Of a stretch of 43,991 nucleotides of DNA, positions 8,915 to 35,758 are shown piece after piece. The notes under the pieces are model-generated. The model made no database searches, was not told the origin of the DNA, and saw only the letters and a list, made by a program, of their open reading frames with translations. The position numbers were made by a program, and so were the translations under genes. The first letter of the stretch is position 1, and every line of letters begins with the position of its first letter. Source of the DNA: an uncultured Eubacteriales bacterium (lineage in GTDB: Bacteria; Bacillota; Clostridia; Peptostreptococcales; Anaerovoracaceae); assembly GCA_902784035.1 (NCBI GenBank), contig CACZTH010000161.1, forward strand, positions 1 through 43,991, in the 5' to 3' direction.

Positions 8915-11409
8915 CCCGGGCCGGTATGAGAAGGGTCGCTGTCCGGAGGATCCGGACCCATCTGGGCCGGTTCCTCGCCATCCTCCTGATCGCGGCCCTG
9001 GGAACAGGTTTTTTCGCGGGTCTGAAGGTGTGCAAGAGGACCATGGCGGGGACCCTCCAGGAGTTCACTGTCGCCACTCGTTTTCATGATTTCGAGGTCG
9101 CTTCGACGCTTGGGTTCGAAGGGGAGGACGTCCGCGTCCTCGGGAAGGTCGCCGGCATCCGGTCCGCCGAGGGCAGCCGGTCCCGGGACCTGATCCTCTC
9201 CACCTCCGGGCGTCTTGGCGCCTACCGGGTATCCCAGATCGGGCGGAAAACAGACCTGCCCAGCCTGAAGGCGGGCCGGATGCCCCGGTCCGCGGGCGAG
9301 GCCCTGGGAGACAGCCGGGCCTTCAGCGAGAAGGACCTGGGGAAGACCATTTCCATCGCGGCGGGGAATGAGAAGACCTCGAAGGAGGCTTTCACACGGA
9401 CCTCGTTCACGCTGGTGGGACTCTGTGAGAGCCCGGCCTGGCTGGGGAGCCAGCGGGGGACCACCGACATCGGGGACGGGAGCCTGAAGGGCTTCCTGCT
9501 GGTGCCCGCGGCCGCCTTTCAGAAGGACCAGCCCTATACCTCGATCCTCCTGAGGATGAAAGCCCAGCCCCTGGTCTACTCGGAGGACTATCAGGCTCTG
9601 GCGAAGAAGGTGAAGAAGCAGGTCCGAAAGACGGCGGAGGAACAGGCCAGCAGCCGCTGGCGGAAGATGCTGGCGGAGGTCCGTGAGAAGTCGCCGCTCA
9701 CCTATCTGGTCTCTCCGGAAGACATCCTGAAGATGCGGGGTCTGTCCGAACCGGAGGTCTATGTCCTGGGCAGGGCGGAGAATGCCGGTTACCGGGCCTT
9801 CGAGAATGATACAGGGCTCGTCGCGGGAATCGCGGATCTTTTTCCCCTTCTCTTCATCCTGGTGGCCATGCTGGTCTGCATGACCACGGTCAGCCGGCTG
9901 GTAGAGGAGGAGCGGATCCAGATCGGGACCCTGAAGGCCCTGGGCTACAGTGAGGCGTCTATCACAGGCGGCTACCTCGCTTACGCGGGGCTGGCGGGCG
10001 TCCTGGGCTGGGCCGCCGGCTTCTTCGTCGGGACCCTCTTCTTCCCCAGGCTCCTCTGGTGGGCCTACAGCGTCGTCTATGACTTTCTCCCCCTCCGCTA
10101 CTACTTCAGCCTGCCCCTGGCCCTCCTGACCCTGGGCGCGGTCCTGGGCCTCCTGCTTCTGGTGACCTGGCTGACCTGCCGGGAGACCCTCCGGCAGACA
10201 CCGGCGGCCCTCCTGGTCCCGCCCGCCCCGAAGGCGGGGCGGCGGATCCTGCTGGAGCGGATCGGGCCCCTCTGGCGGCGGTTCTCCTTCCTCCAGAAGG
10301 TGACCCTCCGGAACATGTTTCGATATAAGAAAAGGTTCCTCATGATGCTGGTCGGGATCGCCTGCTGCTCAGGGCACATCCTGATGGCCTTCGGGATCCG
10401 GGATTCCATGGTAGGAGTAGGGGACATCCAGTTCGGCCGGATCCAGAAGTATGACCTGAGGGTCGGGACCGGGGAAGGCCAGGCTGAGACGGTCGCGAAG
10501 GAGGCGAAGGCGGTTCTGCCCGGCTTCCGGGCTCTGGCCGCTGTCTCCCAGACCGGGAAACTTCGGAAGAAGGACGGTTCCCGGCTGGACCAGGTGGACT
10601 TCCTGGCCTTTCCGGGAGCGTCAGAGAAGGAATTCCGGACCTGCTGGAACCTGAAGACGCCGGATGGGAAGGCCCTGTCACTCCCGGAGAAGGGTCAGGT
10701 CCTGATCTGCGAGAAGGCCGCCCAGGAGGCGGGGGTCCGGAAGGGAGGCCGGATCACCCTCTGGTCCGGCGGAACGAAGAGGACCTTCCGGGTAGCCGGT
10801 ATCTTCCGGAATTATGTGGGGACCATCGTGATTTTTTCAGGCGGAGACGGAGCCTACCTTCGGGCGCGGGGGGAGACCGACTGCCTGTTCGCCTTCGTCC
10901 GGGGAGACCGCGGAGAGGCGGCTTCGAAGCTTATGGCGCTTCCGGGCGTCCGGTCCTGCAGCCGGACGGACCAGGCCCGGCGGGACACGGACCAGGCTAC
11001 GGAGAGCCTGAACAGCATCATCTGGGTCATCGTGGCTTTCGCGGCCCTCCTGGCCTTCGTGGTCATTTTCGACCTGACCGGGATCAACCTGGCGGAACGG
11101 AAACGGGAGATCGCGACGGTCATGGTCCTGGGCTTCACAGACCGGGAGACGGCCCGGTACGCTCTTCGGGAGAACCTGATCCTGTCGGTGTTCGGGTCGG
11201 TGCTGGGGCTGCCCCTCGGCGCCTTCTTCCAGCGGATGATCATGCAGAAGATCCGGGTGGAACACATCCTGTATCCGCCGGTCATTCATCCGGCCTCCTA
11301 TCTCCTGGCCTTCCTCCTGACCATGGTCTTCAGCCTGGTCATCGTGGGCGTGGTCCGGGGCAGGCTCCGGAAGATCCCCATGGCGGAGTCCCTGAAGGCC
11401 CAGGAGTAG
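8908..11409 (+). CDS. FtsX/MacB-like ABC transporter permease
   Basis: 833 aa with two FtsX-type repeats ([14 protein letters not shown]; [14 protein letters not shown]) and flanking TM segments. Confidence 0.9.
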
Positions 11410-11431
11410 GAAGAGCGGGCCCGGCATCCGG

Positions 11432-11484
11432 CGAGGCCTGGGGCCCGGCGGAAAGAGGCAATCCGCCGGGTCCGGCCGGTCTCG
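11432..11484. other. Long GC-rich inverted repeat between the ABC permease and hydE
   Basis: CGAGGCC..GGGCCCGGCGGA pairs with TCCGCCGGGTCC..GGTCTCG. There is no U-tract, so a terminator role is uncertain. Confidence 0.45.
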
Positions 11485-11538
11485 AACGGGTACGGCAAGC
11501 CCCTGTTTCAATTTCCTTTGACGGGAAATATATGAGGT

Positions 11539-12645
11539 ATGACGATGACGGGCGCTGAACAACTGATCGAACGGCTGGAGCGGGAACGCCGCCTTTCTCT
11601 TTCGGAGTATGAGGCCCTGATCCTGGCCGGCCGGGGAGAGACCGGGGCAGATCTTCGGGCTGCGGCGGCGGCGCGGGCTGCCCGGGTCCGGGACGAGAAC
11701 TACGGGAACAGGGTCTTCGTACGGGGCATCGTGGAATTCACGAATATCTGCCAGAATGACTGCTATTACTGCGGGATCCGCCGCTCCAACCAGGAGGTCG
11801 CCCGTTACCGGCTGACCGGGGACGACATCCTCCGCTGCTGTGAGGCGGGCTACGGCCTGGGCATGAGGACCTTCGTTCTCCAGGGGGGAGAGGACGGCTG
11901 GTATGATGATGACCGGATGGCGGCCATCGTTCGCCGGGTGAAGGGGGAATTCCCTGACTGCGCCGTGACCCTGTCTCTGGGAGAGCGGTCCAGGGACAGC
12001 TACCAGCGCCTCTTCGACGCGGGGGCGGACCGCTATCTCCTCCGGCATGAGACCGCGGACCGGGCCCACTACCGGAAGCTCCATCCGGCCAGCATGTCCT
12101 GGGAGCACCGGATGGCCTGTCTCTGCGTCCTCCGGGGTATCGGATACGCCGTGGGCCTGGGCATGATGGTGGGGTCCCCCTTCCAGACCGCGCGTGACCT
12201 GGCGGAGGACCTGAAGCTGATCGAAACCTTCCAGCCGGACATGTGCGGGATCGGGCCCTTCATCCCTCACAGGGACACCCCCTTTCGGGACCAGCCCGCG
12301 GGGACCCTGGAGGAGACCCTCTATCTTCTGTCTCTGATCCGCCTGCTCTGTCCCGATGTTCTCCTGCCCGCCACCACCGCCCTGGGCACCATCGATCCCC
12401 GGGGCAGGGAGAAGGGGGTGGCCGCCGGCGCGAATGTGGTCATGCCGAATCTTTCGCCGGGCCGGGTCCGCCATCAGTATGAGCTGTATGATAATAAGAT
12501 CTGCATGGATGATGAACCGGTCATGTGCAGAAACTGCCTGGACCTCCGGATGCGGACCGTGGGCTGCCGGATCGTGGTGGACCGCGGCGACCGGAGGAGG
12601 GCGGACAGCGCGGAGCGAAAACAGACGGAAACTGAGCCTGAATGA
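11539..12645 (+). CDS. hydE: [FeFe]-hydrogenase H-cluster radical SAM maturase HydE
   Basis: RGIVEFTNICQNDCYYCG (CxxxCxxC), YLLRHET, GIGPFIPH.DTP, PATTALGT, GANVVMPN, YELY, and C-terminal Cx7Cx2C (CMDDEPVMCRNC) as in HydE's auxiliary cluster site. Confidence 0.9.
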   Translation: MTMTGAEQLIERLERERRLSLSEYEALILAGRGETGADLRAAAAARAARVRDENYGNRVFVRGIVEFTNICQNDCYYCGIRRSNQEVARYRLTGDDILRCCEAGYGLGMRTFVLQGGEDGWYDDDRMAAIVRRVKGEFPDCAVTLSLGERSRDSYQRLFDAGADRYLLRHETADRAHYRKLHPASMSWEHRMACLCVLRGIGYAVGLGMMVGSPFQTARDLAEDLKLIETFQPDMCGIGPFIPHRDTPFRDQPAGTLEETLYLLSLIRLLCPDVLLPATTALGTIDPRGREKGVAAGANVVMPNLSPGRVRHQYELYDNKICMDDEPVMCRNCLDLRMRTVGCRIVVDRGDRRRADSAERKQTETEPE

Positions 12646-12715
12646 GATTGCCGCCGCGGGTCGCGGGTCGGCCGGATCGGTCAGATCAACTGGCTCGAAC
12701 CGCCCGCCCCTGGCC

Positions 12716-12743
12716 TTGACAGTCCTTGTGCGGATGATAAAAT
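12716..12743 (+). promoter_or_regulatory. Strong sigma-A-like promoter for the TM1266/nitrogenase-like/hyp operon
   Basis: TTGACA (12716-12721), 16 bp spacer containing an extended -10 TG (12735-12736), TAAAAT (12738-12743). Confidence 0.75.
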
Positions 12744-12815
12744 ACAGATAGATAAGCATTCCATCTGACCGTGAGGTGATCCGAGCGGGAAGCGGAGGAT
12801 GCGGACCGCATTCTG

Positions 12816-12844
12816 ATCCTTCCCGAGCCCGGGAAGGATTTTTT
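12816..12844 (+). terminator. Intrinsic terminator inside the operon leader (attenuator)
   Basis: Perfect stem ATCCTTCCCG-AGCC-CGGGAAGGAT plus TTTTT, lying between the promoter and the RBS (AAGGAG 12855-12860). Confidence 0.75.
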
Positions 12845-12866
12845 GTCAGAAAGAAAGGAGATCGTC

Positions 12867-13130
12867 ATGAGCGAAGAGAAGAGACTGGGGATCGTCGGCG
12901 TCGTGGTGGAGGACCTGACCCAGGCGGAGGCGGTGAACGAGGTGATCCATGACTTCAGCGGCCTGATCGTGGCCCGGATGGGGATCCCCTACCGGGAAAG
13001 GGGGGTCTCGGTCATCTCTCTCCTGGTGGACGGGGGGCAGGACCAGATTAACGCCCTGACCGGGCGGCTTGGCCGGATCCCGGACGTGTACGCCAAGTCC
13101 ATGCTTCAGCGGATGAAGGAACAGGCATGA
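12867..13130 (+). CDS. TM1266-family iron-only hydrogenase system putative regulator (ACT-like)
   Basis: 87 aa: [12 protein letters not shown]...VNEVIH...[19 protein letters not shown]...[11 protein letters not shown]. This family is normally found beside hydE/hydG. Confidence 0.85.
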
Positions 13131-13906
13131 AGAAGATCGCCATCTATGGGAAAGGCGGGATCGGCAAGTCCACGGTGACCTCCAACCTGGCGGCGGCCTT
13201 CGCCATGCTGGGGAAGAAGGTCATCCAGATCGGCTGCGACCCGAAGGCGGATTCCACCATCAGCCTCCTGGGCGGGGAGCCCCTCCAGCCGGTGATGGAT
13301 TACATGCGGGCCTATGATAAGGAGCCCGGGCTGGAGGAGGCCATGAAGGTCGGCTTCGGCGGGGTCCTCTGCATCGAGACCGGGGGCCCGACGCCTGGCC
13401 TGGGCTGCGCGGGGCGGGGGATCATCGCCACTTTCTCGCTGCTGGAGGACCTGGAGCTTTTCGAAAAAGAAGACCCGGACATCGTTCTCTATGATGTCTT
13501 AGGAGACGTGGTCTGCGGCGGTTTCGCCGCTCCCATCCGGGAGGGCTACGCCAGCGAGATCCTGATCGTGACTTCGGGGGAAAAGATGGCGCTGTACGCC
13601 GCGGGCAACATCAGCGACGCGGTGATGAATTTCGAGGACAGAAGCTATGCCCGGGTCCGGGGCGTGGTCCTGAACCGGAGGAATGTGCCGGACGAGGAGG
13701 AAAAGGTGAAGGCCTTCGCGGCCTCCCGGGGCTTCCCGGTGATCGCGGACATCCCGCGGAGCGACGCCATTAATGAGTATGAGGACCAGGGCATGACGGT
13801 GATCCAGGGAAATCCGGATCTGCCGGTGAGCCAGTGCTTCTTCCGGCTGGCGCGGACGCTGCTGGAGGACGAGGACGGCGGAAAAGCGCCGGCGGCGGAG
13901 GCGTGA
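13127..13906 (+). CDS. Nitrogenase Fe-protein-like ATPase/reductase (NifH/CfbC/BchL family), copy 1
   Basis: [32 protein letters not shown] and [11 protein letters not shown]; both [4Fe-4S] cysteines present. Confidence 0.93.
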
Positions 13907-14000
13907 CGGTCCTCCCGCTGGCGGACGCCGGAGGCGGCAGCGGTACGACGGTCTTCCCGCGGGCGGGGCGCCGGCGGAGAAGGGGATGACGGCCGCCCGC
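13905..14000. repeat. Degenerate ~42-bp tandem repeat in the intergenic spacer
   Basis: Units begin GACGGTCCTCCCGC (13905), GACGGTCTTCCCGC (13947) and GACGGCCGCCCGC (13988). Confidence 0.5.
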
Positions 14001-14047
14001 AGGGCAGAATTCGTCAGTTCATGAAAGCGGAGAGAGGCGGAGAAAAC

Positions 14048-15370
14048 ATGCGGAATGACCAGCCCTACAGCATCACAGCCAGGGAGCTCTATGGAGCGGG
14101 ACCGGACCAGATCCCGGATCCCTTCATCCCCAGCTGCCACCTGATCTACAGCTCTCCGGCCACCCTGGCCTATAACTCCCCCGGGGCCATCGGCTTCGGG
14201 GTGAAAAGGGCGGGGCTCCTGATCCCGGAGTCCGTCATGCTCCTGGTGTCCCCCGCCTGCTGCGGGCGGAATTCCACCATTCTTTCCAGTGAGGAAGGCT
14301 ACGCGGACCGGATGTTCTACCTGCTTATGAAGGAGGCGGACCTGGTGACCGGCCGCCACCTGTCCCGGATTTCCCAGGCTATCCGGGAGATCGCGGAGGC
14401 GGCGGAGCCCCGGCCGAAGGTGGTGGTCATCTGCATCACCTGCGCGGACGCGCTCCTGGGCACGGACCTGGAGCGGGTCTGCCGGCGGGCGGAGGCGGAG
14501 ACCGGCCTCCGGGTGGTCCCCAGCTATATGTACGCCCTGGAGCGGGAGGGACGGAAGCCCCCCATGGCCGCCATCCGGAAAACCATTTACTCCCTGCTGG
14601 AAAAGGGCGAAAAAGAGCCGGACCGGATCAACCTGATGGGCTTCTTCACGCCGGTGGATCCGAGGAGCGAGCTTTTCCAGGTTCTCCGGGGGATGGGGAT
14701 CCGGAAGATCGGTCAGGTCTGCCAGTATGACAGCCTGGACGCCTATCAGAAGATGGGCCGGGCCAATTTCAACCTGGTCCTTCATCCCGAGTCCCGCTAC
14801 GCCGCCGAGGACCTGCTGACCCGGCTGGGCATGCCCTATATCGAGTTTCCCCGCCTCTTCCAGCCGGAACGGATCCACCAGCAGTACCAGCTCCTGGCCG
14901 CCGCGCTGGGGACGCGCGCCGAGGACGGCCCCATGTTCGAAGCGGCCCGGAAGGCCCGGGACCAGTTTCGGTCCCGCTACGCCGGCCTGACCTGCGCGGT
15001 GGGGGAGATGACGAACGCCGATCCTTTCGAGCTGGCCGCCTCTCTGGCGGACATGGGCCTCCGGGTGAAAAGCGTCTTTTCCAACGTGACCCCGGACAGC
15101 TTTCCCTTCCTGAAGCGGCTGGCGGCGGCTTCCCCGGATACCCGGATCTACACCGGCATCTCCCCCTCCATGATCCATTATGAAGAGGAGAAGGACGTAG
15201 ACCTGACCATCGGAAAGGACGCCGGCGGATACATCCCGTCCGCCAGGAACCTGGAATGGTTCGGAGAGCTCCAGCCCTACGGTTTCCAGGGCTTTACTGA
15301 TTTTCTGTCCGCCGCCTCCGCCGTCCTGGAGGGACCAGCCTCCGACGAACGAAAGGGGGTCTTCCTGTGA
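14048..15370 (+). CDS. Nitrogenase component-1-like oxidoreductase, D/alpha-type subunit, copy 1
   Basis: VSPACCGR, MKEADLVTG, ITCADALLGTDL, INLMG and YGFQG follow the NifD/E/BchN/CfbD pattern. Start at ATG 14048 (alternative 14021). Confidence 0.85.
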   Translation: MRNDQPYSITARELYGAGPDQIPDPFIPSCHLIYSSPATLAYNSPGAIGFGVKRAGLLIPESVMLLVSPACCGRNSTILSSEEGYADRMFYLLMKEADLVTGRHLSRISQAIREIAEAAEPRPKVVVICITCADALLGTDLERVCRRAEAETGLRVVPSYMYALEREGRKPPMAAIRKTIYSLLEKGEKEPDRINLMGFFTPVDPRSELFQVLRGMGIRKIGQVCQYDSLDAYQKMGRANFNLVLHPESRYAAEDLLTRLGMPYIEFPRLFQPERIHQQYQLLAAALGTRAEDGPMFEAARKARDQFRSRYAGLTCAVGEMTNADPFELAASLADMGLRVKSVFSNVTPDSFPFLKRLAAASPDTRIYTGISPSMIHYEEEKDVDLTIGKDAGGYIPSARNLEWFGELQPYGFQGFTDFLSAASAVLEGPASDERKGVFL

Positions 15371-16620
15371 AAGGCCTGTATCGCTATCTCAGCCCCGCGG
15401 CCCCGGACCAGTCCGGCGCGGTCTCCGTCCTGTTCGAGCAGGGCGGCCTGATCGTGGTCCTGGACGCCGGCGGCTGCACCGGCAACATCTGCGGCTTCGA
15501 CGAGCCCCGCTGGTTCCTCCGGAAGAGCGCCGTCTACTCAGCGGGCATCCGGGACATGGACGCCATCCTGGGCCGGGACGACAAGCTGATCGACAAGCTT
15601 CAGGAGGCCGTGGACACCGCCGACGCCCGTTTCATCGCTCTGATCGGCACCCCCGTTCCCTCTGTCATCGGCACCGACTACCGCGCCCTGGCCCGGCTGG
15701 CCCGGAAGCGCTACGGCCTCCCGGTGATCTGGACCGACACCGCCGGCATCGACAGCTACGAGAAGGGCGCGTCGAAGGCCTACCTGGCCCTGATCGATCT
15801 GGCGGAGGAACTGTTTGGCGGGGAAAAAGCTGACCGGCGGGCGTTCCCTTCCTCCGTCATGCCCGCTCCGGGCGTCCCGGCCGCCGGGACGACGGCGGCC
15901 GGGAGCGCCGATGCCGGAAGCACGGAGGCCCCCGGCTCTGGCTCTGGCTCCGCCCCGCTGCCTGCTGGCCGCGTCCTGGTCTGGGGAGCCACGCCCCTGG
16001 ACCTGCCGGCGGCCGACGGCGCCCTCTGCCTCCGCCGGAGGATCGCGGCCCGGGAGGGAGTGCCGGAGGATCAGGTGGTCACCATCGGCATGGACAGCCG
16101 GCTGGAGGATCTCCGGGACCTGGGCGGGGTCCGGAAGAACCTGGTCTGCGCGCCCTCCGGTTTCGCGCCCGCCCGGCGGCTGGCGAAGGCCTTCGGTACC
16201 CCCTGGGAAGCCTGCTTCCCGGTGCCGCCGGAGGCGGCCGGCCTGGCCCGGGACATCCCCCATGCCTGCCGGGTCCTGATCCTCCACCAGCAGGTCCTGG
16301 CGGACGGACTCCGGGAGGTCCTGGAAGCCGGCCGGCCCGACCTTCAGATAACGACGGCCTCCCTTTTTACCATGGATCCGGCCCTGGCCCGGCCGGCGGG
16401 CGGTTTCGACGGATTGGCGGCCCCGCCTGACACCGAGCTTCCCGGCGAGGATGAGCTGGTCCGTTTCGTGAAGGAAAACCATTTCGACGCGGTGATCGGA
16501 GATCCCATTTACTTCCGGGCCCTGAAGAGCCCGGAGCTGATCCGGATCCCTCTCGCCCATTTCGCGCAGTCAGGGGGCATGTACCGGCCCGCCTGTGATG
16601 AGGACGCATGGATAATATGA
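15367..16620 (+). CDS. Nitrogenase component-1-like oxidoreductase, K/beta-type subunit, copy 1
   Basis: DAGGCTGN..FDEPRW, DAILGRDDKL, GTPVPSVIGTDY, WGATPLD and IGDP; GTG start overlaps the upstream stop. Confidence 0.82.
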   Translation: MKGLYRYLSPAAPDQSGAVSVLFEQGGLIVVLDAGGCTGNICGFDEPRWFLRKSAVYSAGIRDMDAILGRDDKLIDKLQEAVDTADARFIALIGTPVPSVIGTDYRALARLARKRYGLPVIWTDTAGIDSYEKGASKAYLALIDLAEELFGGEKADRRAFPSSVMPAPGVPAAGTTAAGSADAGSTEAPGSGSGSAPLPAGRVLVWGATPLDLPAADGALCLRRRIAAREGVPEDQVVTIGMDSRLEDLRDLGGVRKNLVCAPSGFAPARRLAKAFGTPWEACFPVPPEAAGLARDIPHACRVLILHQQVLADGLREVLEAGRPDLQITTASLFTMDPALARPAGGFDGLAAPPDTELPGEDELVRFVKENHFDAVIGDPIYFRALKSPELIRIPLAHFAQSGGMYRPACDEDAWII

Positions 16621-18965
16621 CCCGGCGAAAACTTCATATCTTCGGGATTGTCCAGGGGGTGGGCTTCCGCCCCCACGCGGCTCGGACCGCGGCGGATACC
16701 GGGGTCACCGGCACCGTCTGCAATAAGGGGCCCTATGTGGAGATCTTCATCCAGGGGACCCTGGCCCAGGTCGACCGCTTCGAGCGCCTGCTCCAGGACA
16801 GAGCCCCGGAACGGTCCCACATTCTCCAGGTGGAAGCGGAGAATGTTCCGGTCGAGCCCGGCGAGTCTGATTTCCGGATCATTCACAGCCAGAAGGTAAG
16901 GGGAAGGATCCTGGTTTCCCCGGACATCGCCATCTGCCCGGACTGTGAGCGGGAGCTCTTCGACCCGGAGGATCCCCGCTACCTTCATCCCTTCATCAAT
17001 TGCACCGCCTGCGGTCCCCGGCTGACCATCCTGAAGGGCATGCCCTATGACCGGGTGCGGACCAGCATGAGCCGCTTTCCCATGTGCCCCCGCTGTGAGG
17101 GCGAGTACACAGACCCGAAGAGCCGGCGCTATCACGCTCAGCCTGTCTGCTGCCCCGACTGCGGCCCTCATCTCACCGCCTTCCGGCCCGATCAGCCGGA
17201 GACCAGGAAGAAGGGGGACGCGGAGGTCATCCGCCTGGCCCGAAAGACCCTTCGGGCGGGAGGCATCCTCGCGGTCAAAGGCATCGGCGGCTTTCACCTG
17301 GCCTGCGACGCCCGGTCCCAGGCCGCTGTGGCCCGGCTCCGCCGCCTGAAGGCCCGGCCGTTCAAGCCCTTTGCCGTCATGGTCCGGGACCTGGAGACAG
17401 CGGCCCGGGAGTGTGAGATCGGCGGAGCGGAGAAGGCGCTGACCGGGCCGGAGAAACCCATCCTCCTTCTGCCGAAGCGGGCGGACGGGGCGGTTACCGG
17501 TCTCGCGGCGCCGGAACAGTCACGGCTGGGGATCATGCTCCCCTATACGCCCCTCCACCACCTGCTTTTCCGTTATCCGGACGGGGAGGGGATGACCGAC
17601 TGCCTGATCATGACCAGCGCCAACCCGAAGGGGGCGCCCATCTGCCGGACGGCGGAGGAAGTCCGGGACAGTCTGGGCGGCCTGTGCGACCTGGTGGTGG
17701 ACCATGACCGGGAAATCCTCCTCCGGGCGGATGATTCCGTGGCCGCCCTTTCCCGGGGCCGACTGTCCATGATCCGGAGATCCCGGGGCTACGCGCCCCT
17801 GCCCTTCACCGGCCCCGCCGGCGAACGGGGGACTGTCCTGGGCATGGGAGGCGAGCTGAAGAACACCTTCTGCCTGGCGAAGGACGGACTCTATTATCCT
17901 TCTCCCTATATAGGGGATCTGGCCGACCTTCGGAGCGTGGCCGCTCTCCGGCAGGCGCTGACCCGGATGGAGGACCTGCTGGAATTCCGCCCGGAGAGGG
18001 TGGTCTGCGACCTCCATCCCGCCTACCACAGCGCGGAGGAAGCGGAGGAACTGGCCCGGACCCGGGGGCTTCCGCTCCATAAGATCCAGCATCACTACGC
18101 CCATGTCCTGTCCTGTATGGCTGAGCACCGAGAGGAAGGGCCGGTCATCGGCGCCGCCCTGGACGGGACCGGGTATGGGGAAGACGGCACGGTCTGGGGA
18201 GGGGAATTCCTCCTGGCGGATCGGGCCGGCTATACCCGGCTGGGCAGCCTCCGCCCCTTCCCCCAGGCGGGCGGCGACCTGGCTCCGAAGGAGGGCTGGC
18301 GGCCCGCTTTCGGCCTGCTCCTGGAGGCCTTCGGCGGGGCAGGGGCGCCGGGCGCCGCTGAAGCGGCTGAGAAGCTGGGCGCGGAGCTCGGCCTGAACAG
18401 CCGTCCAGCCCTCCATGTCCTGAACCAGATGATCCAGGCGGGGGTCAACACCGTACCCTCTTCCAGCCTCGGCCGCTTCTTCGACGCGGCCTCAGCGGTC
18501 CTGGGCTTCCGGACAGCGTCCAGCTGCGAGGGGGAAGCGGCCATGGTCCTCCAGCACCGGGCCGAGCGCTGGAAGGGGGACATCCGGCCTCTTCAGCTGC
18601 CGGAAGTGGAGTTCGAGGGGGAGGGAGGCCTCTTCCGCCTGCCGGGAGGTCCGGTCCTGCTGGAGCTGGCGGACCGCCGTCTGAACGGTGAGCCGGCTGA
18701 CGGGCTCGCGTGGGCCTTCCACCGGGCGGCGGCGGAGATGACCGTCCGGGGGGTCTGCCTTTGTCAGAAGAAGACAGGCCTCAGGAAGGTGGTCCTGACC
18801 GGCGGCGTCATGCAGAACCTTCTGCTGCTGGAAATGATCGAGACGGCCCTGGAGGACCGGGGCTTCGAGGTCCTGACCCACGCCATGATCCCCGCGAACG
18901 ACGGGGGGATCGCGCTGGGCCAGGCCTGGTATGGAATGAAGAAAGGGGAACAGCTATGTGTGTAG
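16608..18965 (+). CDS. hypF: Carbamoyltransferase HypF
   Basis: Acylphosphatase domain GIVQGVGFRP, two Zn fingers (CPDC..CTAC; CPRC..CPDC), KGIGGFHL, QHHYAH, DGTGYG and PANDGGIALGQ. Alternative start 16617. Confidence 0.96.
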   Translation: MDNMTRRKLHIFGIVQGVGFRPHAARTAADTGVTGTVCNKGPYVEIFIQGTLAQVDRFERLLQDRAPERSHILQVEAENVPVEPGESDFRIIHSQKVRGRILVSPDIAICPDCERELFDPEDPRYLHPFINCTACGPRLTILKGMPYDRVRTSMSRFPMCPRCEGEYTDPKSRRYHAQPVCCPDCGPHLTAFRPDQPETRKKGDAEVIRLARKTLRAGGILAVKGIGGFHLACDARSQAAVARLRRLKARPFKPFAVMVRDLETAARECEIGGAEKALTGPEKPILLLPKRADGAVTGLAAPEQSRLGIMLPYTPLHHLLFRYPDGEGMTDCLIMTSANPKGAPICRTAEEVRDSLGGLCDLVVDHDREILLRADDSVAALSRGRLSMIRRSRGYAPLPFTGPAGERGTVLGMGGELKNTFCLAKDGLYYPSPYIGDLADLRSVAALRQALTRMEDLLEFRPERVVCDLHPAYHSAEEAEELARTRGLPLHKIQHHYAHVLSCMAEHREEGPVIGAALDGTGYGEDGTVWGGEFLLADRAGYTRLGSLRPFPQAGGDLAPKEGWRPAFGLLLEAFGGAGAPGAAEAAEKLGAELGLNSRPALHVLNQMIQAGVNTVPSSSLGRFFDAASAVLGFRTASSCEGEAAMVLQHRAERWKGDIRPLQLPEVEFEGEGGLFRLPGGPVLLELADRRLNGEPADGLAWAFHRAAAEMTVRGVCLCQKKTGLRKVVLTGGVMQNLLLLEMIETALEDRGFEVLTHAMIPANDGGIALGQAWYGMKKGEQLCV

Positions 18966-19168
18966 GTCTTCCTGCCCAGGTGCGGTCCGTGAAGGACGGC
19001 ATGGCCGTGGTGGACGCCACGGGGGCCTTGAGAGAGGTGTCGGCGGAGCTATTAGAGGACCTGGAGCCGGGGGACTTCGTCATGGTCCACGCCGGGGCCG
19101 CCATCGCGAAGATCAGCCAGGACGACGGCGCTGAGGCCGACGCGATCCTGAAGGAGCTGGGCGAATGA
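18956..19168 (+). CDS. hypC: Hydrogenase maturation chaperone HypC
   Basis: MCVGLPAQV N-terminus (Cys2) and GDFVMVHAGAAI; RBS AAAGGGG. Confidence 0.94.
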   Translation: MCVGLPAQVRSVKDGMAVVDATGALREVSAELLEDLEPGDFVMVHAGAAIAKISQDDGAEADAILKELGE

Positions 19169-20229
19169 GCGCGCGGGATGTCATTCAGCGGGCCCTCGGC
19201 GTGATCCGCCGCTATGACGGCCCGCCAGTCCGGATCATGGAGGTCTGCGGGACCCATACCCATGAGATCTTCCGGCTGGGCATCCGGGGACTGCTGCCGA
19301 ACCAGGTCCGTCTCATTTCCGGGCCGGGCTGCCCCGTCTGCGTGACCCCGGTGGGGTACATCGACGAAGCCATCTGGCTGGCCCTGGAGAAGGGATGCGT
19401 GATCGCCACCTTCGGGGACCTGATCCGGGTGCCGGGGACGGAGATGAGCCTGGCAGACGCCCGGGCCAGGGGAGCGAGGGTGGAGACGGTCTATTCGCCG
19501 CTGGACGCCCTGAAGCTGGCGAAGGAGGAGCCGGACCGGGAGGTGGTCTTCCTGTCGGTGGGCTTCGAGACCACCACGCCCTCCTCGGTCATCAGCGTCC
19601 GGAACGCGGAGGAGCAGGGGGTCCGGAACTATACCATCCTGACGGCGAATAAGACCATGGACAATGCCTACCGGGCCCTGAAGGGGTCGGCGGACGCTTT
19701 CCTCTATCCCGGCCACGTCAGCACCATGACCGGGACAGCCATCTACCGGGAGCTCCTGGAGGAGGGCGTTTCCGGCGTGGTCACCGGCTTCACCGGCGCG
19801 GAGCTTCTTTCGGCGCTGGCGGTCATCCTCCGGCGGCTGCCGGAGGGGAAGCCCTTCTTCGTCAACGCCTATCCCCGGGTGGTCACGGACGAGGGCAGTC
19901 CGGCCTCCCGGGACCTCGTCCGGCGGTTCATGGAGCCGGTTGATTCCGAGTGGCGGGGGATCGGGGTGATCCCGGACTCCGGCCTTCAGCTGAGGGAGGC
20001 GTACGCCGCCTTCGACGCCCGGAAGAAGCACGACGTTCCCCCGATCCGGGGCCGGGCCAATCCCGGCTGTCACTGCGGGGAGGTCCTCCGGGGCAGCATC
20101 CGGCCGGACCAGTGCCCGATGTTCGGTAGGGCCTGCACGCCGGTCCATCCGGCCGGGGCCTGCATGGTGTCCAGCGAGGGCGCCTGCGCCGCTTTTTATA
20201 AATATGACCTGAGACAGGAGCAGCAATGA
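19165..20229 (+). CDS. hypD: Hydrogenase maturation protein HypD
   Basis: MEVCGTHT, GPGCPVC, GFETT, PGHVS and the C-terminal FeS motif ending GACMVSSEGAC. Confidence 0.96.
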   Translation: MSARDVIQRALGVIRRYDGPPVRIMEVCGTHTHEIFRLGIRGLLPNQVRLISGPGCPVCVTPVGYIDEAIWLALEKGCVIATFGDLIRVPGTEMSLADARARGARVETVYSPLDALKLAKEEPDREVVFLSVGFETTTPSSVISVRNAEEQGVRNYTILTANKTMDNAYRALKGSADAFLYPGHVSTMTGTAIYRELLEEGVSGVVTGFTGAELLSALAVILRRLPEGKPFFVNAYPRVVTDEGSPASRDLVRRFMEPVDSEWRGIGVIPDSGLQLREAYAAFDARKKHDVPPIRGRANPGCHCGEVLRGSIRPDQCPMFGRACTPVHPAGACMVSSEGACAAFYKYDLRQEQQ

Positions 20230-21230
20230 ACGAAAGAATTACGCTGGCCCACGGAGCGGGGGGAATCCAGACCTCCCAGCTCATCGGCGGCCTGTTTGAG
20301 AAATACCTGGGCGGCCCCCATTTCACGAAGGATGACGCGGCGGTTCTCCCGTCTCCCCAGGGGCAGCTCGCCATGAGCACCGACGGCTTCATCGTGTCCC
20401 CGGCCTTCTTCCCCGGCGGCAATGTGGGCAAGCTGTCCATCTGCGGCACAGTGAACGACCTGGCCTGCATGGGGGCGAAGCCCCTTTACCTGACCTGCAG
20501 CTTCATCATCGAGGAGGGTTTTCTCTATGATGACCTGGAAAGGGTAGTGGCCGCCATGGCCGAGACCGTAAACAGGGTGGGCTGTGAGATCGTGGCCGGC
20601 GATACGAAGGTGGCCGGCAAGGGCCAGGCCGATGGGGTCTTCATTACCACCACCGGGGTCGGGGCCCTTACCCCCGGCGCGGCGCCTGCGGGCAGCCGGG
20701 CCAGACCCGGGGACGCGGTCCTGGTGACCGGCGACGTGGGCCGCCACGGCTGCACCATTCTCCTGGCCCGGAACAGCTTCGGCATCGACGCTGACGTGAC
20801 GAGTGACTGCGCGCCGCTCTGGGCGCCGGTCCGGGATATGCTGGCCGTGACGAAGGACATCCACGTGATCCGGGACGCCACCCGGGGCGGAGTGGGAACA
20901 GTCCTCTATGAGGTGGCCGGCGAGAGTCAGGTCGGCATCCGCCTCCGCCGGGCAGACGTCCCCGTGAAGGACGAGGTCCGGGGGGTCACCGGCATGCTGG
21001 GCCTGGATCCCCTCTACCTGGCCTGCGAGGGCTGCATGGTGGTCATCTGCCCCCAGGAGAAGGTTCCCGCCGTTCTGGAGGCCCTCCGGCGGCACCCGGA
21101 AACGAAGGACGCGGCCCAGATCGGGACCGTCACGGAAGAGCAGAAGGGCAGGGTCGTGGTCGAGACCGAAGTCGGCGGAGAGACCCTCCTGTCCCGGCCA
21201 ACCGGTGAGCTCCTGCCGCGGATCTGCTGA
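20226..21230 (+). CDS. hypE: Carbamoyl dehydratase HypE
   Basis: LAHGAGG, GTVNDLA, GDTKV, RDATRGG and C-terminal LPRIC (thiocyanate-carrying Cys). Confidence 0.96.
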   Translation: MNERITLAHGAGGIQTSQLIGGLFEKYLGGPHFTKDDAAVLPSPQGQLAMSTDGFIVSPAFFPGGNVGKLSICGTVNDLACMGAKPLYLTCSFIIEEGFLYDDLERVVAAMAETVNRVGCEIVAGDTKVAGKGQADGVFITTTGVGALTPGAAPAGSRARPGDAVLVTGDVGRHGCTILLARNSFGIDADVTSDCAPLWAPVRDMLAVTKDIHVIRDATRGGVGTVLYEVAGESQVGIRLRRADVPVKDEVRGVTGMLGLDPLYLACEGCMVVICPQEKVPAVLEALRRHPETKDAAQIGTVTEEQKGRVVVETEVGGETLLSRPTGELLPRIC

Positions 21231-21308
21231 ATAAGGCGGCCGCGGCGGACGGTCCTCCCGCCGGGAGGCTATTATCCTATCCTACAGTTTAGAGAGATCG
21301 GAGAAGAG

Positions 21309-22154
21309 ATGTATAAACTGGCATTCTATGGAAAGGGCGGCATCGGAAAATCCACCACTGTGTCGAATGTGGCCGCCTGCCTGGCGGAGAGGGGACTTCG
21401 GGTCATGCAGATCGGCTGCGACCCGAAGGCGGACTCCACCATCGACCTCCGGGGCGGCGCCCCCAAGCTGTCTGTCATGCAGCTTCTTCGAGAGAAGAAC
21501 CGGGCCGCGCCCCTGGACGAGCTGGTGACCACCGGTTACAACGGGGTCCTGCTGGTGGAGGCGGGAGGACCGACCCCGGGCTTAGGCTGCGCCGGCCGGG
21601 GGATCATCGCCGCCCTGGAGCTTCTGGACGAGAAAAAGGCCTACGAGGTCTACCAGCCTGACGTGGTCCTGTTCGACGTCCTGGGCGACGTGGTCTGCGG
21701 CGGCTTCTCCATGCCCATCCGGGAGGGATACGCCGACCAGGTCTTCATCCTGACCTCCGGCGAGGCCATGTCCTGCCACGCCGCCATGAACATCGCCGTG
21801 GCCGTGGACACCTTCCGCCAGCGGGGCTACGCCTCCCTGGGCGGGATCATTCTGAACCGGAGGAACGTCCGGGATGAGGACGCCCGGGTGGCCAGGCTCT
21901 GCGAAGACACCGGCACCTCCCTGGTGGGGTCCCTGGACTTCTCTGAGACGGTCCAGGACGCCGATGAGATGCGGAAGACGGTGATCGAGGCCTTCCCGGA
22001 CAGCGCCGCCGCTGACATGTACCGGATCCTGGCGGGGGACCTGATCGCCCGCGCCCGGGTCAACGCGGAGGCCGCCGCCCTGGATCCCGATGGCGACAGT
22101 TACGTGACCCCGGCGGGCATCCGGCGCTTCCGCGAGGAAGGAGGCCTGGCATGA
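21309..22154 (+). CDS. Nitrogenase Fe-protein-like ATPase/reductase, copy 2
   Basis: [34 protein letters not shown] and [11 protein letters not shown]. Confidence 0.93.
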   Translation: MYKLAFYGKGGIGKSTTVSNVAACLAERGLRVMQIGCDPKADSTIDLRGGAPKLSVMQLLREKNRAAPLDELVTTGYNGVLLVEAGGPTPGLGCAGRGIIAALELLDEKKAYEVYQPDVVLFDVLGDVVCGGFSMPIREGYADQVFILTSGEAMSCHAAMNIAVAVDTFRQRGYASLGGIILNRRNVRDEDARVARLCEDTGTSLVGSLDFSETVQDADEMRKTVIEAFPDSAAADMYRILAGDLIARARVNAEAAALDPDGDSYVTPAGIRRFREEGGLA

Positions 22155-23698
22155 TCATCGATCTTCATCAGGCGGAGAAGGACGACAAAGACCGCCCGTC
22201 AGACGCCCAGACAGACGCCCTGTCAGACGTCTACCCAGACCCCCGGGCAGACGTCCAGACAGCCTCCGCGGATCGGGCGGAGCTTCCCCTGGGCCAGGTG
22301 GACAGCCTGACGCCCTTCAGAGCCGGCATCGAATATTCCCCGCCCGCCCGGGGGACCTGGACCATCGCCCATACCCCCTTCCTGGTGCCGGAGAGCCGGC
22401 AGATCTTCGTCTGCCCGGAAGGCTGCCTCCGGGGGGTGGTCCTGTCCGCCGCCGAGTGCGGGGGAACAGACAGGTTCTCTGTCGTGGCCGTGAAAGAAAA
22501 GGATCTTTACGAGGGCGATATGGAGGGACTCTCCATCGAGGGCGTCTCGGATATCCTGTCCCGGTGCGATCCGCTCCCGAAGGTCTGCTTCGTCTTCACC
22601 GCCTGCATCCACCACTTCCTGGCCCTGGACCGGAAGCTGGTCTTCCAGACCCTCCGGGACCGTTTCCCCCAGGTGGACTTCCTGGAATCCAACATGAACT
22701 GCACCATGCGGAAGTCCAGGCTGAATTATGAAGAGGTTCAGTGGCGGCAGAACTACGCCGGCCTCCACGGTTCCCCGGAAGAACCGAAGGACCCCCGCCA
22801 GGTGAATATCATCGGCAGCTACTACGCGACGGACGAGGCTTCGGGCCTTCTGGAAATGCTCCGGGCCGGCGGGGTCCGGGTCCTGGATCTGCCCCGGCTG
22901 AAGACGTACGGAGACTACCGTCAGATGGAAAAAAGCGCCTGGAACATCTGCCACTGGCCTGTGGCCAGGGAGGCCTGCCGGGATCTTTCCGCCCGGCTTG
23001 GACAGCGGGAGCTGTATCTTCCCTATACCTGGGACCCTGCTGAGATCACCGAGCTTCTGAAAAAGGCCGGGCAGGCCCTGGCCTGCCCGGTCCCGGAGGA
23101 CCTGCCCCAGCGGTCCGCCCGGGCCCTGGACCGCCTCGCCCGGGTCGGCGCGCGCTTCCGCGCCGGCGGCGCGGAAGTCGGCGTGGACGGGGTGTCCACG
23201 CCCAGGCCGTTCGGCCTGGCGCGCCTGCTGACCGAGGCTGGGTTCCCGGTCAGGATCATCTACGCCGATGCTGTGGCGCCGGAGGACGCGCCGGCTTTCC
23301 GGGCTCTCCGGGAGACCCATCCGGAGATCATGATGAGCGCCATGGTCGATTTCCGGCTCCGGCTCCGTTCCCGGGACCTGGCTGCCCGGGCGGCCGAAGA
23401 AGGAAAGCGGTTCGTGGCGGTCGGCCAGCGGGCAGCCTACTTCTCCGGCACAGATTACTTCGTGAACATGGTGGCGAACGACGGGCTCTGGGGATTTCGG
23501 GGTATCGAGGCCCTGGCGGACAGGCTGGACAGCGCCTTCCGCCGGTCGAAGGACCCCCGCCGGGTCATCCAGGTGAAAGCCAGGGGCTGCGACCCCTGTC
23601 CGGGTGCCGGCGATGTCTACCAGCCCGGACCGGAGATCAGCGCCGCTTTTCGTTCAATCCCGGCGAATTCTGAAGAAGGAAGGGGGCGGTCCCGGTGA
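22151..23698 (+). CDS. Nitrogenase component-1-like oxidoreductase, D/alpha-type subunit, copy 2
   Basis: EYSPPARG, FVCPEGCLRG, VKEKDLYEG, TACIHHFLALD, VNIIG and WGFRG; parallels 14048-15370 motif by motif. Confidence 0.82.
   Translation: MIIDLHQAEKDDKDRPSDAQTDALSDVYPDPRADVQTASADRAELPLGQVDSLTPFRAGIEYSPPARGTWTIAHTPFLVPESRQIFVCPEGCLRGVVLSAAECGGTDRFSVVAVKEKDLYEGDMEGLSIEGVSDILSRCDPLPKVCFVFTACIHHFLALDRKLVFQTLRDRFPQVDFLESNMNCTMRKSRLNYEEVQWRQNYAGLHGSPEEPKDPRQVNIIGSYYATDEASGLLEMLRAGGVRVLDLPRLKTYGDYRQMEKSAWNICHWPVAREACRDLSARLGQRELYLPYTWDPAEITELLKKAGQALACPVPEDLPQRSARALDRLARVGARFRAGGAEVGVDGVSTPRPFGLARLLTEAGFPVRIIYADAVAPEDAPAFRALRETHPEIMMSAMVDFRLRLRSRDLAARAAEEGKRFVAVGQRAAYFSGTDYFVNMVANDGLWGFRGIEALADRLDSAFRRSKDPRRVIQVKARGCDPCPGAGDVYQPGPEISAAFRSIPANSEEGRGRSR
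22190..22261 (+). repeat. Six degenerate 12-bp in-frame tandem units (GACnnCnnnnCA)
   Basis: Encodes DRPS-DAQT-DALS-DVYP-DPRA-DVQT in the N-terminal extension of the D-like copy 2. Confidence 0.65.
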
Positions 23699-25047
23699 AA
23701 CAGGCGAAAATCGTCACCTCGGTCTATTCGGTGGATCTGTTCGGGATCTGCTCCCTCCTCTATGAGCTGGGGGGCCTGATCGTCATGCACGACGCCAGCG
23801 GCTGCAATTCCACCTACGCGACCCACGATGAGCCGCGCTGGTACGACATGGACAGTATGATATACATCTCGGGTCTCACGGAATTCGACGCGGTCATGGG
23901 AAATGATGAAGGCTTCATCGAGGATGTCCTGGAGATCGCCCGGGAGCGGCACCCCCGCTTCATCGCGGTCTTCGGGTCTCCGGTGGCCATGATCATGGGC
24001 ACAGATTTCCGGGGGATCGCCCGGATCATCGAGCGGCGGTCGGGCATTCCCTGCTTCGGTTTCGAGACTTCCGGCATGCGGACCTACGTGTCCGGTGCGG
24101 CTCAGGCCATGACCGCCCTGGTCCGCCGCCTTCTGGCGGAGCCGGAAGCGTTCGGGATAAGGGCGCCGGCCGGTACCCCGTCCTCCCCGGCTTTCTCCCC
24201 CGCGTCCGTTCCGGAGGCGGCGGCTGGCCAGCCTTATCAGGTCCGGGACGGGGCCGCCGCGGGCGGGGGGCCGGCTGACCGACCCCTTCGGATCAATCTT
24301 CTGGGGGTCACGCCCCTGGACTTCTCTGTCATGGGCAATGTGGCTGCCCTCCAGGCCTGGTGCCGGGAGATGGGTTTTCAGGTCTGGACCACCTGGTGTA
24401 TGGGCGATTTCCTCGAGGATCTGGCCCGGGCGCCGGAGGCGGACGTGGACCTGGTCTGCTCGGCCATGGCCCTGCCGGCAGCGAAGGAGCTTCAGGTCCG
24501 GTACGGGATCCCCTATGTGATCGGCCTGCCCTATGGGACAGGGGCCGGGAAGGCTCTGGCGAGGGCCATCCGCCGGGCGGCGGGAGCCAGGAACGGCGGC
24601 CTGAGCGGGGAGCGGGATGAATGTTTCTCCCCGGACATTTTCGGTACTTCTGAAGGGGGAGAGGCCTGCCTGTCGGGGTCTCCGAAGATTCTCCTGATCG
24701 GGGAGCCGGTGGCCTGCGGCAGTCTGAGGGTCAGCCTGGAAGCGGCCGGGGCCGGTGTAGTCCGGCTGGTCGACCCCCTGGAGGATCTGGGGGTTCCTCT
24801 TCGGCCGGGGGATGTCCGCACGGACGCGGAGGAGGACCTCCGGCGGCTGATCGGGGAGGCGGACCTGGTCATCGCGGACCCGCTCTATAGACGCCTCCTC
24901 CCGGAGGCGGACCAGGGAAAACTGATCCGCCTGCCCCATGAGGCTTATTCAGGCCGGATGTACCGGGCGGAGATCCCGGTCCTGGTGGGGGAGGCCTGGG
25001 ACCGGTGGCTGGAGAAGAAGCTGCCGCCCGCCTTCCGCCGGGCATGA
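23695..25047 (+). CDS. Nitrogenase component-1-like oxidoreductase, K/beta-type subunit, copy 2
   Basis: HDASGCNST..HDEPRW, DAVMGND, GSPVAMIMGTDF, INLLGVTPLD and IADPLY; parallels 15367-16620. Confidence 0.82.
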   Translation: MKQAKIVTSVYSVDLFGICSLLYELGGLIVMHDASGCNSTYATHDEPRWYDMDSMIYISGLTEFDAVMGNDEGFIEDVLEIARERHPRFIAVFGSPVAMIMGTDFRGIARIIERRSGIPCFGFETSGMRTYVSGAAQAMTALVRRLLAEPEAFGIRAPAGTPSSPAFSPASVPEAAAGQPYQVRDGAAAGGGPADRPLRINLLGVTPLDFSVMGNVAALQAWCREMGFQVWTTWCMGDFLEDLARAPEADVDLVCSAMALPAAKELQVRYGIPYVIGLPYGTGAGKALARAIRRAAGARNGGLSGERDECFSPDIFGTSEGGEACLSGSPKILLIGEPVACGSLRVSLEAAGAGVVRLVDPLEDLGVPLRPGDVRTDAEEDLRRLIGEADLVIADPLYRRLLPEADQGKLIRLPHEAYSGRMYRAEIPVLVGEAWDRWLEKKLPPAFRRA

Positions 25048-25108
25048 GCAGGAAAGGAGCGCGGACCGGGCCCTTTTCCCTTTTGTTTAACTATATGGAT
25101 GGATATAG

Positions 25109-25147
25109 AAAGGCTCCAGCCGCTCTGATAAGCGGCCGGGGCCTTTT
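25109..25147 (+). terminator. Probable terminator closing the nitrogenase-like/hyp operon
   Basis: AAAGGCTCCAGCCGCT-CTGATA-AGCGGCCGGGGCCTTTT hairpin. Confidence 0.6.
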
Positions 25148-25491
25148 CGCGCTTCCCGTTGTCTGGCGGGAGGTTTTCGATTACGCGGGCGGCTGTGGGG
25201 ATCGGGAAAGGCGGGACCTGCGGCTGTGAAACGGCGATTCTTTCGACTTAACAGAATCGCGGCGAAGAATTTACAGAATTTTCACAATGGGCGAAAGCCG
25301 CATGAAATAAGGGGCCGCGGCATTTCACTCCTTCGGAGGGGCCCGGGATGTCCGTGAAACCCCTTCCCCCTGACCGGATGGTATGATAGTCTTTTTATGC
25401 AGAAACTAAAGAGAGAAACGGCAAGAAGGCCGTCTTCCCTCCCGCCCGCTCAGGAAGCGGACTGTCCTGTCGCGTTATTAAGAGGAACATC

Positions 25492-26442
25492 ATGAGTACA
25501 GAGAATGCCAATGTCGTCGAAATCCGCGGTCTGGTGAAGGACTATGGTGTTTTTCGTGCCATCGACCACCTGGACCTGACCATCCGGCAGGGGGAGATCT
25601 TCGGCCTCCTGGGCCCCAACGGGTCCGGGAAGTCCACCACCATCGGCTGTCTCCTGTCCCTGCTGAAGTACAGCGGGGGCACCATCAAGGTCTTCGGGGA
25701 GTCCATGTCGCCAGCGGCCTATGATCTGAAGCGGCGGATCGGCGTGGTCTTCCAGGACATGGCCGTGTTCGACCAGCTGACCGTGAAGGATAACATCGAT
25801 TATTTCTGCGGCCTGTATGTGACAGATAAGACCGCCCGAAAGAAGTATGTGGAGGAAGCCATCGACTTCGTCGGTCTGGGAGACTTCATACGGAAGAAGC
25901 CCAGGCAGCTGTCCGGCGGCCTGAAGCGGCGTCTGAACATCGCCTGCGGGATCGCGCATAAGCCGGACCTGGCCATCCTGGATGAGCCCACGGTAGCGGT
26001 GGATCCCCAGAGCCGGAATAATATCCTGGAAGGGATCCGTCAGCTCAACCAGGCGGGATCGACCATCATCTACACTTCTCATTATATGGAAGAGGTGGAG
26101 GAGCTCTGCACCAGGATCGCGATCATCGACAGGGGGAAGCTGATCGCGGAGGGGACCAGCTCGGAACTGATCGGAAGGATCCAGGCGGATGAAACCGTCA
26201 CCGCCGAGGGGATCCAGCTGACCGAAGACCAGGTCCGGCAGCTGGAACAGATGCCGATTGTTCTGTCGGCGGTCTATAACGGCGGAATCCTGAAGCTCCA
26301 GCTCCGGGGCTCCGGCGCGGGGCTCATGACCATTCTCCGGTATCTCGAGCAGGAGCGGATCCGGTTCGGAAGGATCTATTCGGAGAAGCCGACGCTGAAC
26401 GATGTCTTTCTGGAGCTGACCGGCAAGGAACTGCGGGATTAG
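25492..26442 (+). CDS. ABC-2 type exporter ATP-binding protein
   Basis: GPNGSGKST, LSGGLKRR, ILDEPTVAVDPQSR and YTSHYMEE. Confidence 0.92.
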   Translation: MSTENANVVEIRGLVKDYGVFRAIDHLDLTIRQGEIFGLLGPNGSGKSTTIGCLLSLLKYSGGTIKVFGESMSPAAYDLKRRIGVVFQDMAVFDQLTVKDNIDYFCGLYVTDKTARKKYVEEAIDFVGLGDFIRKKPRQLSGGLKRRLNIACGIAHKPDLAILDEPTVAVDPQSRNNILEGIRQLNQAGSTIIYTSHYMEEVEELCTRIAIIDRGKLIAEGTSSELIGRIQADETVTAEGIQLTEDQVRQLEQMPIVLSAVYNGGILKLQLRGSGAGLMTILRYLEQERIRFGRIYSEKPTLNDVFLELTGKELRD

Positions 26443-32545: not shown

Positions 32546-32618
32546 TTCGGGAGATATGCCTGGGTTGAACAGGGACAGACCTGGCTTCAGGCCTGTCCGC
32601 GCAGGCAGGAGAGAGACG

Positions 32619-35749: not shown

Positions 35750-35758
35750 GGGCAGAGC

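Follow-up and report, generated by a model that had tools for sequence, protein, structure and literature searches.

Hydrogenase maturation and nitrogenase-like genes in a single run

The window analysed here is a stretch of 43,991 nucleotides that makes up the complete contig CACZTH010000161.1 (C161) of an uncultured Eubacteriales bacterium, the assembly of which spans 1.6 Mb and is 91.77% complete. Open reading frames of the window and family profiles revealed a run of 12 plus-strand genes, hereafter the cluster, in the order hydE, TM1266, nflH1-D1-K1, hypF-C-D-E and nflH2-D2-K2. This report describes the cluster, its distribution and its probable place in the maturation of [FeFe]-hydrogenases.

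The first gene, hydE (11539..12645), encodes a radical S-adenosylmethionine (SAM) H-cluster maturase (TIGR03956, 535.8 bits against a cut-off of 254.6). It is followed by a TM1266-family gene (12867..13130; TIGR03959, 104.9 bits against 60.8), the start of which was picked by its ribosome-binding site, and by the first nitrogenase-like set. This set consists of nflH1 (13127..13906), for a NifH-like Fe protein that matches PF00142 at E 5e-84 and scores under the nifH and CfbC cut-offs; nflD1 (14048..15370, the longest open reading frame starting at 14021), for a nitrogenase component-1-like subunit of PF00148; and nflK1 (15367..16620), for the PF00148 partner subunit, the stop of which overlaps the hypF start. 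The four hyp genes occupy 16608-21230 with overlapping ends and are predicted to encode a carbamoyltransferase (hypF, 16608..18965), an Fe(CN)2CO carrier (hypC, 18956..19168), an Fe(CN)2CO scaffold (hypD, 19165..20229) and a carbamoyl dehydratase (hypE, 20226..21230). The second nitrogenase-like set is made of nflH2 (21309..22154; PF00142, E 6e-81), whose product is 50% identical to H1, nflD2 (22151..23698; PF00148), a component-1-like subunit from a clade common to importer-linked hyd loci, and its partner nflK2 (23695..25047; PF00148). GC content at third codon positions was 0.82-0.89 across the ten cluster genes measured and 0.76-0.86 in six neighbours; the cluster therefore does not look recently foreign.

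The Hyp proteins are intact and their nickel-handling partners are absent

HypF and HypE derive cyanide from carbamoyl phosphate, and HypC and HypD assemble Fe(CN)2(CO). The original prediction held that all four hyp genes of the window keep their functional motifs, and this was borne out. All four proteins exceeded their NCBIfam cut-offs: HypF (TIGR00143) with 687.6 bits against 466.1, HypC (TIGR00074) with 62.3 against 48, HypD (TIGR00075) with 386 against 192.8 and HypE (TIGR02124) with 409.1 against 251.6. Known motif patterns were then counted in the sequences. HypF contains two zf-HYPF stretches, HHYAH at 495 and PANDGG at 762. HypC, a protein of 70 residues beginning with MCVG (a longer open reading frame from 18710 is an upstream extension in the hypC frame), keeps Cys2, which is invariant across 39 sequences, as is HAG. 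HypD carries EVCGTH at 26, GPGCPVC at 53, GFETT at 133, PGHVS at 182 and a Cys-rich C-terminus, and HypE ends in PRIC. Full-length relatives agreed: the first zinc finger of HypF was kept in 66/66 and HHxAH in 65/66, CGxH and GPGCPVC of HypD in 71/71, and PR[IV]C in 71/71 HypE relatives.

It had also been stated that the window encodes no HypA, HypB, [NiFe] large subunit or maturation protease. A scan of 39 window open reading frames confirmed this, and the absence extended to the whole assembly: PF00374, PF00346, PF01155 (HypA) and PF01750 (maturation protease) gave no match, and HypB was not found above its cut-off, the best TIGR00073 match (23.7 bits against 121.2) being a CobW/HypB/UreG-family GTPase. 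The cluster resembles the HypABCDEF system in its HypC, HypD, HypE and HypF; it differs in that its genome is devoid of the remaining components and in the placement of its HypD. A tree of 39 sequences put 33 cluster HypDs on one side and the six [NiFe]-linked HypDs tested on the other, with a support of 99/98, subject to a long-branch warning and an outgroup of only six rows.

To see beyond this genome, we used the best 80 of at least 586 HypD relatives, picked on HypD similarity alone; for HypB and the protease, the search covered the genome of the window. A [NiFe] large subunit was detected in 7/80 genomes (one full-length PF00374 protein and six of about 360 residues also matching PF00346) and HypA above cut-off in 21/80, so the carriers do not consistently combine a [NiFe]-hydrogenase with HypA. 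In each of the seven genomes that encode a large subunit, another hypD lies no more than about 8 kb from the large-subunit gene. The original prediction of a nickel-free client for the Fe(CN)x(CO) unit is therefore well supported, since the large subunit occurs in only 7/80 carriers, each time with a separate hypD.

Fourteen carriers have HypA and no large subunit; in eight of them, the best hypA match adjoins a gene for a flavin oxidoreductase of 400-470 residues (loci L096, L098, L102, L104, L106, L107, L108 and L110), with a HypB-like GTPase in two. These loci form a separate system, which is possibly linked to nickel.

The cluster occurs in genomes with HydF and without HydG

By record title, the 80 relatives come from Bacillota, Coriobacteriia and a few other groups, with Ruminococcus albus, Megasphaera, Dorea and Lachnospiraceae among the carriers. 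Of the 80 loci, 77 hold one or more of D1, K1, D2 and K2, and the remaining three end at a contig edge inside hypF. K1 abuts hypF in most loci. Genes flanking hydG in ordinary operons, namely hydE, hydF and TM1266, were found near hypD in 26, 17 and 35 loci, respectively; within 10 kb of hypD, hydE or hydF was present in 33/80 and any of the three in 50/80. Whole-genome searches identified HydF in 78 of the 80 genomes, which serves as an internal control for their completeness, and an [FeFe]-hydrogenase in 77. HydG was found in none of the 80 (E<=1e-60).

Distribution was also analysed in a class-wide sample of 300 genomes from the window's class, each at least 95% complete; G173 was unscored and left out, leaving 299 besides the window's own genome. 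HydG matched at E<=1e-60 in 192/299 (189 of these above the family cut-off), and HydF, searched in all 107 genomes without HydG, was present in 12; the other 95 have neither. The sample was searched with a D1 profile and, as several D2 genes escape it, also with a D2 profile. Both matched the same 14 genomes, of which six contain the full cluster, all six without HydG and with HydF. The D1 and D2 clades were found in 0/192 HydG-positive genomes and in 0/95 genomes without HydG and HydF, and the D2 clade in 9 of the 12 HydF-positive, HydG-negative genomes (six with the full cluster, three with D2K2 and an importer).

Both states, cluster and HydG, occur within each of five families (f1, f38, f44, f48 and f49). 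In genus g62, four genomes have the cluster without HydG, three have HydG without the cluster, and one is without the cluster, HydG and HydF. The latter three are also absent together from G081, a genus-mate of the window's own genome.

The HydE and HydF residues compared are unchanged in genomes with the cluster

The window's own genome encodes three [FeFe]-hydrogenases, all with the first two H-cluster motifs; the third pattern was matched by two of them, and the remaining protein has EGMACEGGC. HydF is encoded on contig C38 (570 bits), adjoining an aspA homologue. HydG was not found in this genome: TIGR03955 at E<=0.001 matched HydE only, and HydE was also the sole match in a tblastn search with a HydG protein from another genome. 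The retention of HydF and [FeFe]-hydrogenases without HydG, in this genome as in the relatives, points to the H-cluster pathway as the final client.

The best match of the window's HydE in the PDB was HydE 3cix (E 2.8e-84). Comparison of 27 core columns, picked from a structure alignment and from known pocket residues, showed near-full agreement among 29 sequences from cluster genomes, 12 from HydG genomes and 3 from importer genomes (a few genomes being counted twice). Three C-terminal Cys columns vary within all groups. The HydF cluster ligands (CxH...HCxxC) are common to cluster and HydG genomes, and no HydE or HydF column in the same alignment separates the two. As the HydE pocket is unchanged, the enzyme probably still needs [Fe(Cys)(CO)2(CN)].

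The cluster is similar to the HydEFG system (TM1266-hydE-hydG-hydF operons) in its HydE with an unchanged pocket, the HydF ligands, TM1266, aspA beside hydF and [FeFe]-hydrogenases as clients. It differs in that HydG is missing (0/80 relatives), Hyp and nitrogenase-like genes accompany hydE, hydF and TM1266 instead, and carbamoyl phosphate would take the place of tyrosine as the source of cyanide. The aspA homologue that follows hydF (L175:488-1797, G000 contig C38) matches in one frame only from residue 82 and looks split or truncated; a second aspA homologue of this genome lies on C106.

Two nitrogenase-like sets without the P-cluster pattern and FeMo-co ligands

H1 and H2 keep the Fe-protein motifs, including in H1 the P-loop and both cluster-Cys motifs. 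In D1 (numbered from 14021), Cys 80, 81, 138, 141 and 154 are conserved, of which Cys81, Cys138 and Cys141 are invariant in 23 sequences, and the alignment showed no conserved Cys or His in the middle and C-terminal parts. K1 has invariant Cys37 and Cys42 in 32 sequences. In D2, His74, Cys92 and Cys152 are invariant and Cys 88, 92, 152 and 480 are conserved, and in K2, His32 is invariant and Cys37 nearly so. The D2 model (predicted local distance difference test score 84) adopts a nitrogenase component-1 fold, with a best template modelling score of about 0.55 at 13-17% identity. By profile, the nearest solved relatives are NifE and NifD (E 1e-8 to 1e-14), D1 being closest to NifD and NifE. 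The three-plus-three Cys pattern of the P-cluster and the Cys/His ligands of the iron-molybdenum cofactor (FeMo-co) are absent from the D/K alignments, the correspondence to NifE being read from profile alignments. NifB was not found in the window or its genome; of five genomes tested, two had NifB matches, one above cut-off. Nitrogen fixation was rejected as a reading for lack of NifB and FeMo-co ligands. The conserved residues suggest one [4Fe-4S]-type site per D/K pair plus a free site.

Like the nitrogenase-like (NFL) systems (the NifEN scaffold, MarHDK, IsrHDK, CfbCD and DPOR), the cluster combines NifH-like Fe proteins with the component-1 fold; unlike them, it holds two sets, in which the P-cluster pattern and FeMo-co ligands are absent, and its genome lacks NifB. 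Judged on the genes that define them, neither the HypABCDEF nor the HydEFG system includes the cluster, nor do nitrogenase and the NifB-dependent group IV NFL systems (Nif, Nfa, Mar and Isr). A complex prediction for D1 and K1 with HypC as partner gave a score of 0.00, which is evidence neither way.

Three loci (L012:4996-7407, L023:4803-7238 and L074:4602-7064) hold D1-containing frames of 800-850 residues. These are apparently D1-K1 fusions and support D1 and K1 acting as a pair.

A second nitrogenase-like set is linked to an importer in some genomes

In three genomes (G375, L160:7430-16445; G174, L161; G298, L162), H2-D2-K2 is found with an iron-complex ABC importer made of a periplasmic-binding protein, FecCD and an ATPase. 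The module adjoins hydE, hydF or TM1266 in all three, and the importer ATPase of G298 carries a fused TM1266 domain. The D subunits of the three loci join the D2 clade in a quick tree of 30 rows with a support of 100 in the Shimodaira-Hasegawa-like approximate likelihood-ratio test. These genomes contain HydF and no HydG. The arrangement suggests salvage of a CO/CN-iron precursor.

The remaining five of the 14 class-sample genomes (G366, G324, G235, G252 and G281; L155-L159) have related H-D-K and importer modules that belong to neither the D1 nor the D2 clade. No hyd or hyp gene lies within the 19 kb examined. Three of their genomes are HydG-positive and two are without HydG and HydF. This module is possibly the ancestral form.

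The TM1266 leader and neighbouring genes

We take the TM1266 family to be a putative regulator of hydEFG operons. Upstream of TM1266, on the plus strand, lies a sigma-70 promoter-like site (12716..12743; TTGACA-16-TAAAAT with TG, 11/12 matches), identified by consensus match only. One such site was found and 1.5 were expected from shuffles, so the match is not above chance. The leader also contains a terminator-like hairpin (12815..12840, plus strand) with an 11-pair stem followed by a T run, a possible attenuator. An Rfam scan of 11300-25600 gave no match up to E=1.

TM1266 leaders frequently contain CTGAC...AGG(C/T)G(A/G)A(A/G)G, followed in several cases by a terminator-like hairpin; the loci listed for this pattern are the window (12745-12866), L040, L044, L051, L060, L075, L146, L162, L199 and L206. 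The strict pattern, chosen after looking at the leaders, was present in 3/20 HydG leaders, 5/16 cluster leaders (all five from Megasphaera), the single importer leader (1/1) and 9/5000 random windows. The window's own leader has CTGAC and the hairpin without a strict match.

Elsewhere in the window, 29078-43612 holds an ordinary capsule/exopolysaccharide cluster (Wzz, tyrosine kinase, dehydratase, DegT aminotransferase, sugar transferase and flippase). At 8217-8911, an ABC ATPase gene before an FtsX-type permease shifts frame near 8770, owing to an assembly error or a broken gene.

A probable replacement for HydG

HydG uses tyrosine to form [Fe(Cys)(CO)2(CN)] and passes this product to HydE (PMC11736057); it is regarded as one of the three required [FeFe]-hydrogenase maturases (PMC11736057). 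HypCDEF yields Fe(CN)2CO (PMC9431212). Genomes that have HydE, HydF and HydA without HydG would need another CO/CN-iron source, and the cluster probably holds one. Based on gene content, gene order, intact motifs and complementary distribution, we consider it likely that hypFCDE, together with the two nitrogenase-like H/D/K sets, takes the place of HydG in providing CO/CN-bound iron for the H-cluster.

In the pathway that we propose, HypF and HypE would make cyanide from carbamoyl phosphate and HypC-HypD would assemble Fe(CN)2(CO), which would then gain one CO and a cysteine and lose one CN before reaching HydE. The ATP-driven D/K pairs could bridge this mismatch by supplying the second CO or exchanging one CN while holding the unit. 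Nitrogenases are able to reduce CO2 to CO (PMC13474568). D1K1 was found only with hyp genes, and D2K2 either with hyp genes and D1K1 or with the importer; this co-occurrence suggests that D2K2 acts ahead of HydE at a step common to both arrangements, the precursor being imported in some species. A division of labour in which H1D1K1 works on the making side and H2D2K2 receives the unit and hands it to HydE is conceivable, and we put it forward as doubtful in its details. The wider scheme is tentative, if somewhat easier to defend: gut, rumen and acetogenic anaerobes may have a second, HydG-free route to the H-cluster, in which a cyanide-iron unit is made by Hyp proteins, one reductase supplies CO or exchanges a ligand and the other is a scaffold feeding HydE, while some species salvage the unit through D2K2 and the importer.

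Several observations weigh against a replacement of HydG by the cluster. Its support comes from gene distribution, and the Hyp product (two CN, one CO) mismatches that of HydG (one CN, two CO and a cysteine). Three HydF-positive, HydG-negative genomes (G150, G340 and G227) contain neither D clade, so loss of HydG does not always bring the cluster; G150 (L169:8566-11115) and G340 (L176:8047-10541), both well assembled, have TM1266-hydE-hydF alone, and hydF of G227 is cut by a contig end. The three importer-type genomes have no hypD genome-wide. Related genomes are not independent counts, for which reason no weight was placed on Fisher tests, and HydE in the 80 relatives was scored at the loci (26/80). 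With a threshold of E<=1e-60 and completeness not given for these 80 genomes, a fragment or a very divergent HydG could have been missed. Clostridium autoethanogenum has, by annotation, the same gene order at CLAU_0351-0360 (PMC9004356) and also encodes a [NiFe]-hydrogenase and its protease. An atypical HydG candidate has been proposed in this and two other species (PMC9431212). In a C. autoethanogenum transposon screen, most cluster genes, hydE and hydF were non-essential; hypD was scored as essential on rich medium, as was hypC on CO, in both cases from very few insertions. The screen is uninformative, because hydE, hydF and most cluster genes alike are non-essential.

Three other explanations were considered. 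The D/K pairs could themselves be the final clients, as nitrogenase-like reductases of unknown substrate with an Fe(CN)x(CO) cofactor, the [FeFe] link reflecting shared regulation only. The position of K1 against hypF is compatible with this, as is the lack of a FeMo-co ligand pattern and of NifB, with which D/K would need another cofactor, and five genomes, three of them HydG-positive, have related H-D-K and importer modules with no hyd gene nearby. Those five modules, however, lie outside the D2 clade, and clients of this kind would leave unexplained both why HydG is found in 0/80 carriers and HydF in 78/80 and why the D1 and D2 clades are absent from the 95 HydF-negative genomes. We therefore regard this explanation as improbable.

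A divergent radical SAM enzyme could instead do the job of HydG, or HydE and HydF could scavenge free CO and CN, making the cluster supplementary or unrelated. Both have been proposed for acetogens in PMC9431212, which cites about 1% activation without HydG, and G150 and G340 do retain hydE-hydF, both HydG and the cluster being absent. In the genome of the window, however, the HydG model and tblastn led back to HydE only, and a hidden HydG gives no reason to expect that the cluster is missing from 192/192 HydG-positive genomes; we judge this reading quite unlikely. Finally, the hyp genes could serve a conventional [NiFe]-hydrogenase whose gene lies elsewhere and escaped the assembly. The 91.77% completeness, the 7/80 large subunits and the 21/80 HypA carriers lend something to this reading, as does C. 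autoethanogenum, where annotation shows a [NiFe]-hydrogenase and no hyp set other than this one. The reading was rejected as very improbable and is largely refuted: a large subunit is missing from 73/80 carriers, whereas hydF, likewise a single gene, was found in 78/80, the other seven have a second hypD beside the large-subunit gene (7/7), and 8/14 HypA carriers without a large subunit have their best HypA match beside the flavin oxidoreductase.

Relation to earlier work and significance

Replacement of HydG by the cluster, which we retain as the likely reading, bears on observations already published. In 2012, NifHEN-like genes were described next to genes for hydrogenase maturation in Firmicutes including Coprococcus catus, with a possible role in active-site metallocluster assembly (PMC3464626). 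This is very probably the same neighbourhood, matched by description rather than orthology; the account is a single sentence in which the hydrogenase type is unstated and HydG unmentioned. In acetogens, hydG was reported missing from five of eight species and HypCDEF was found without HypAB in five, neither finding being explained or connected with the other (PMC9431212). The main text of a 2026 review of NFL systems has no mention of HydE or hydrogenase maturation (PMC13474568). A literature search, with subscription journals mostly outside its scope, returned no title or abstract linking Hyp or nitrogenase-like genes to missing HydG.

The cluster offers one explanation for both gaps in industrial acetogens, the lack of HydG and HypCDEF without HypAB, and names candidate genes. 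If the proposal is true, an unassigned nitrogenase-like group would acquire a function, Hyp proteins would serve a nickel-free cofactor and [FeFe]-hydrogenases could mature independently of tyrosine. The machineries of [NiFe]-hydrogenase, [FeFe]-hydrogenase and nitrogenase would then be joined in one pathway, with a bearing on hydrogen production by rumen and gut bacteria.

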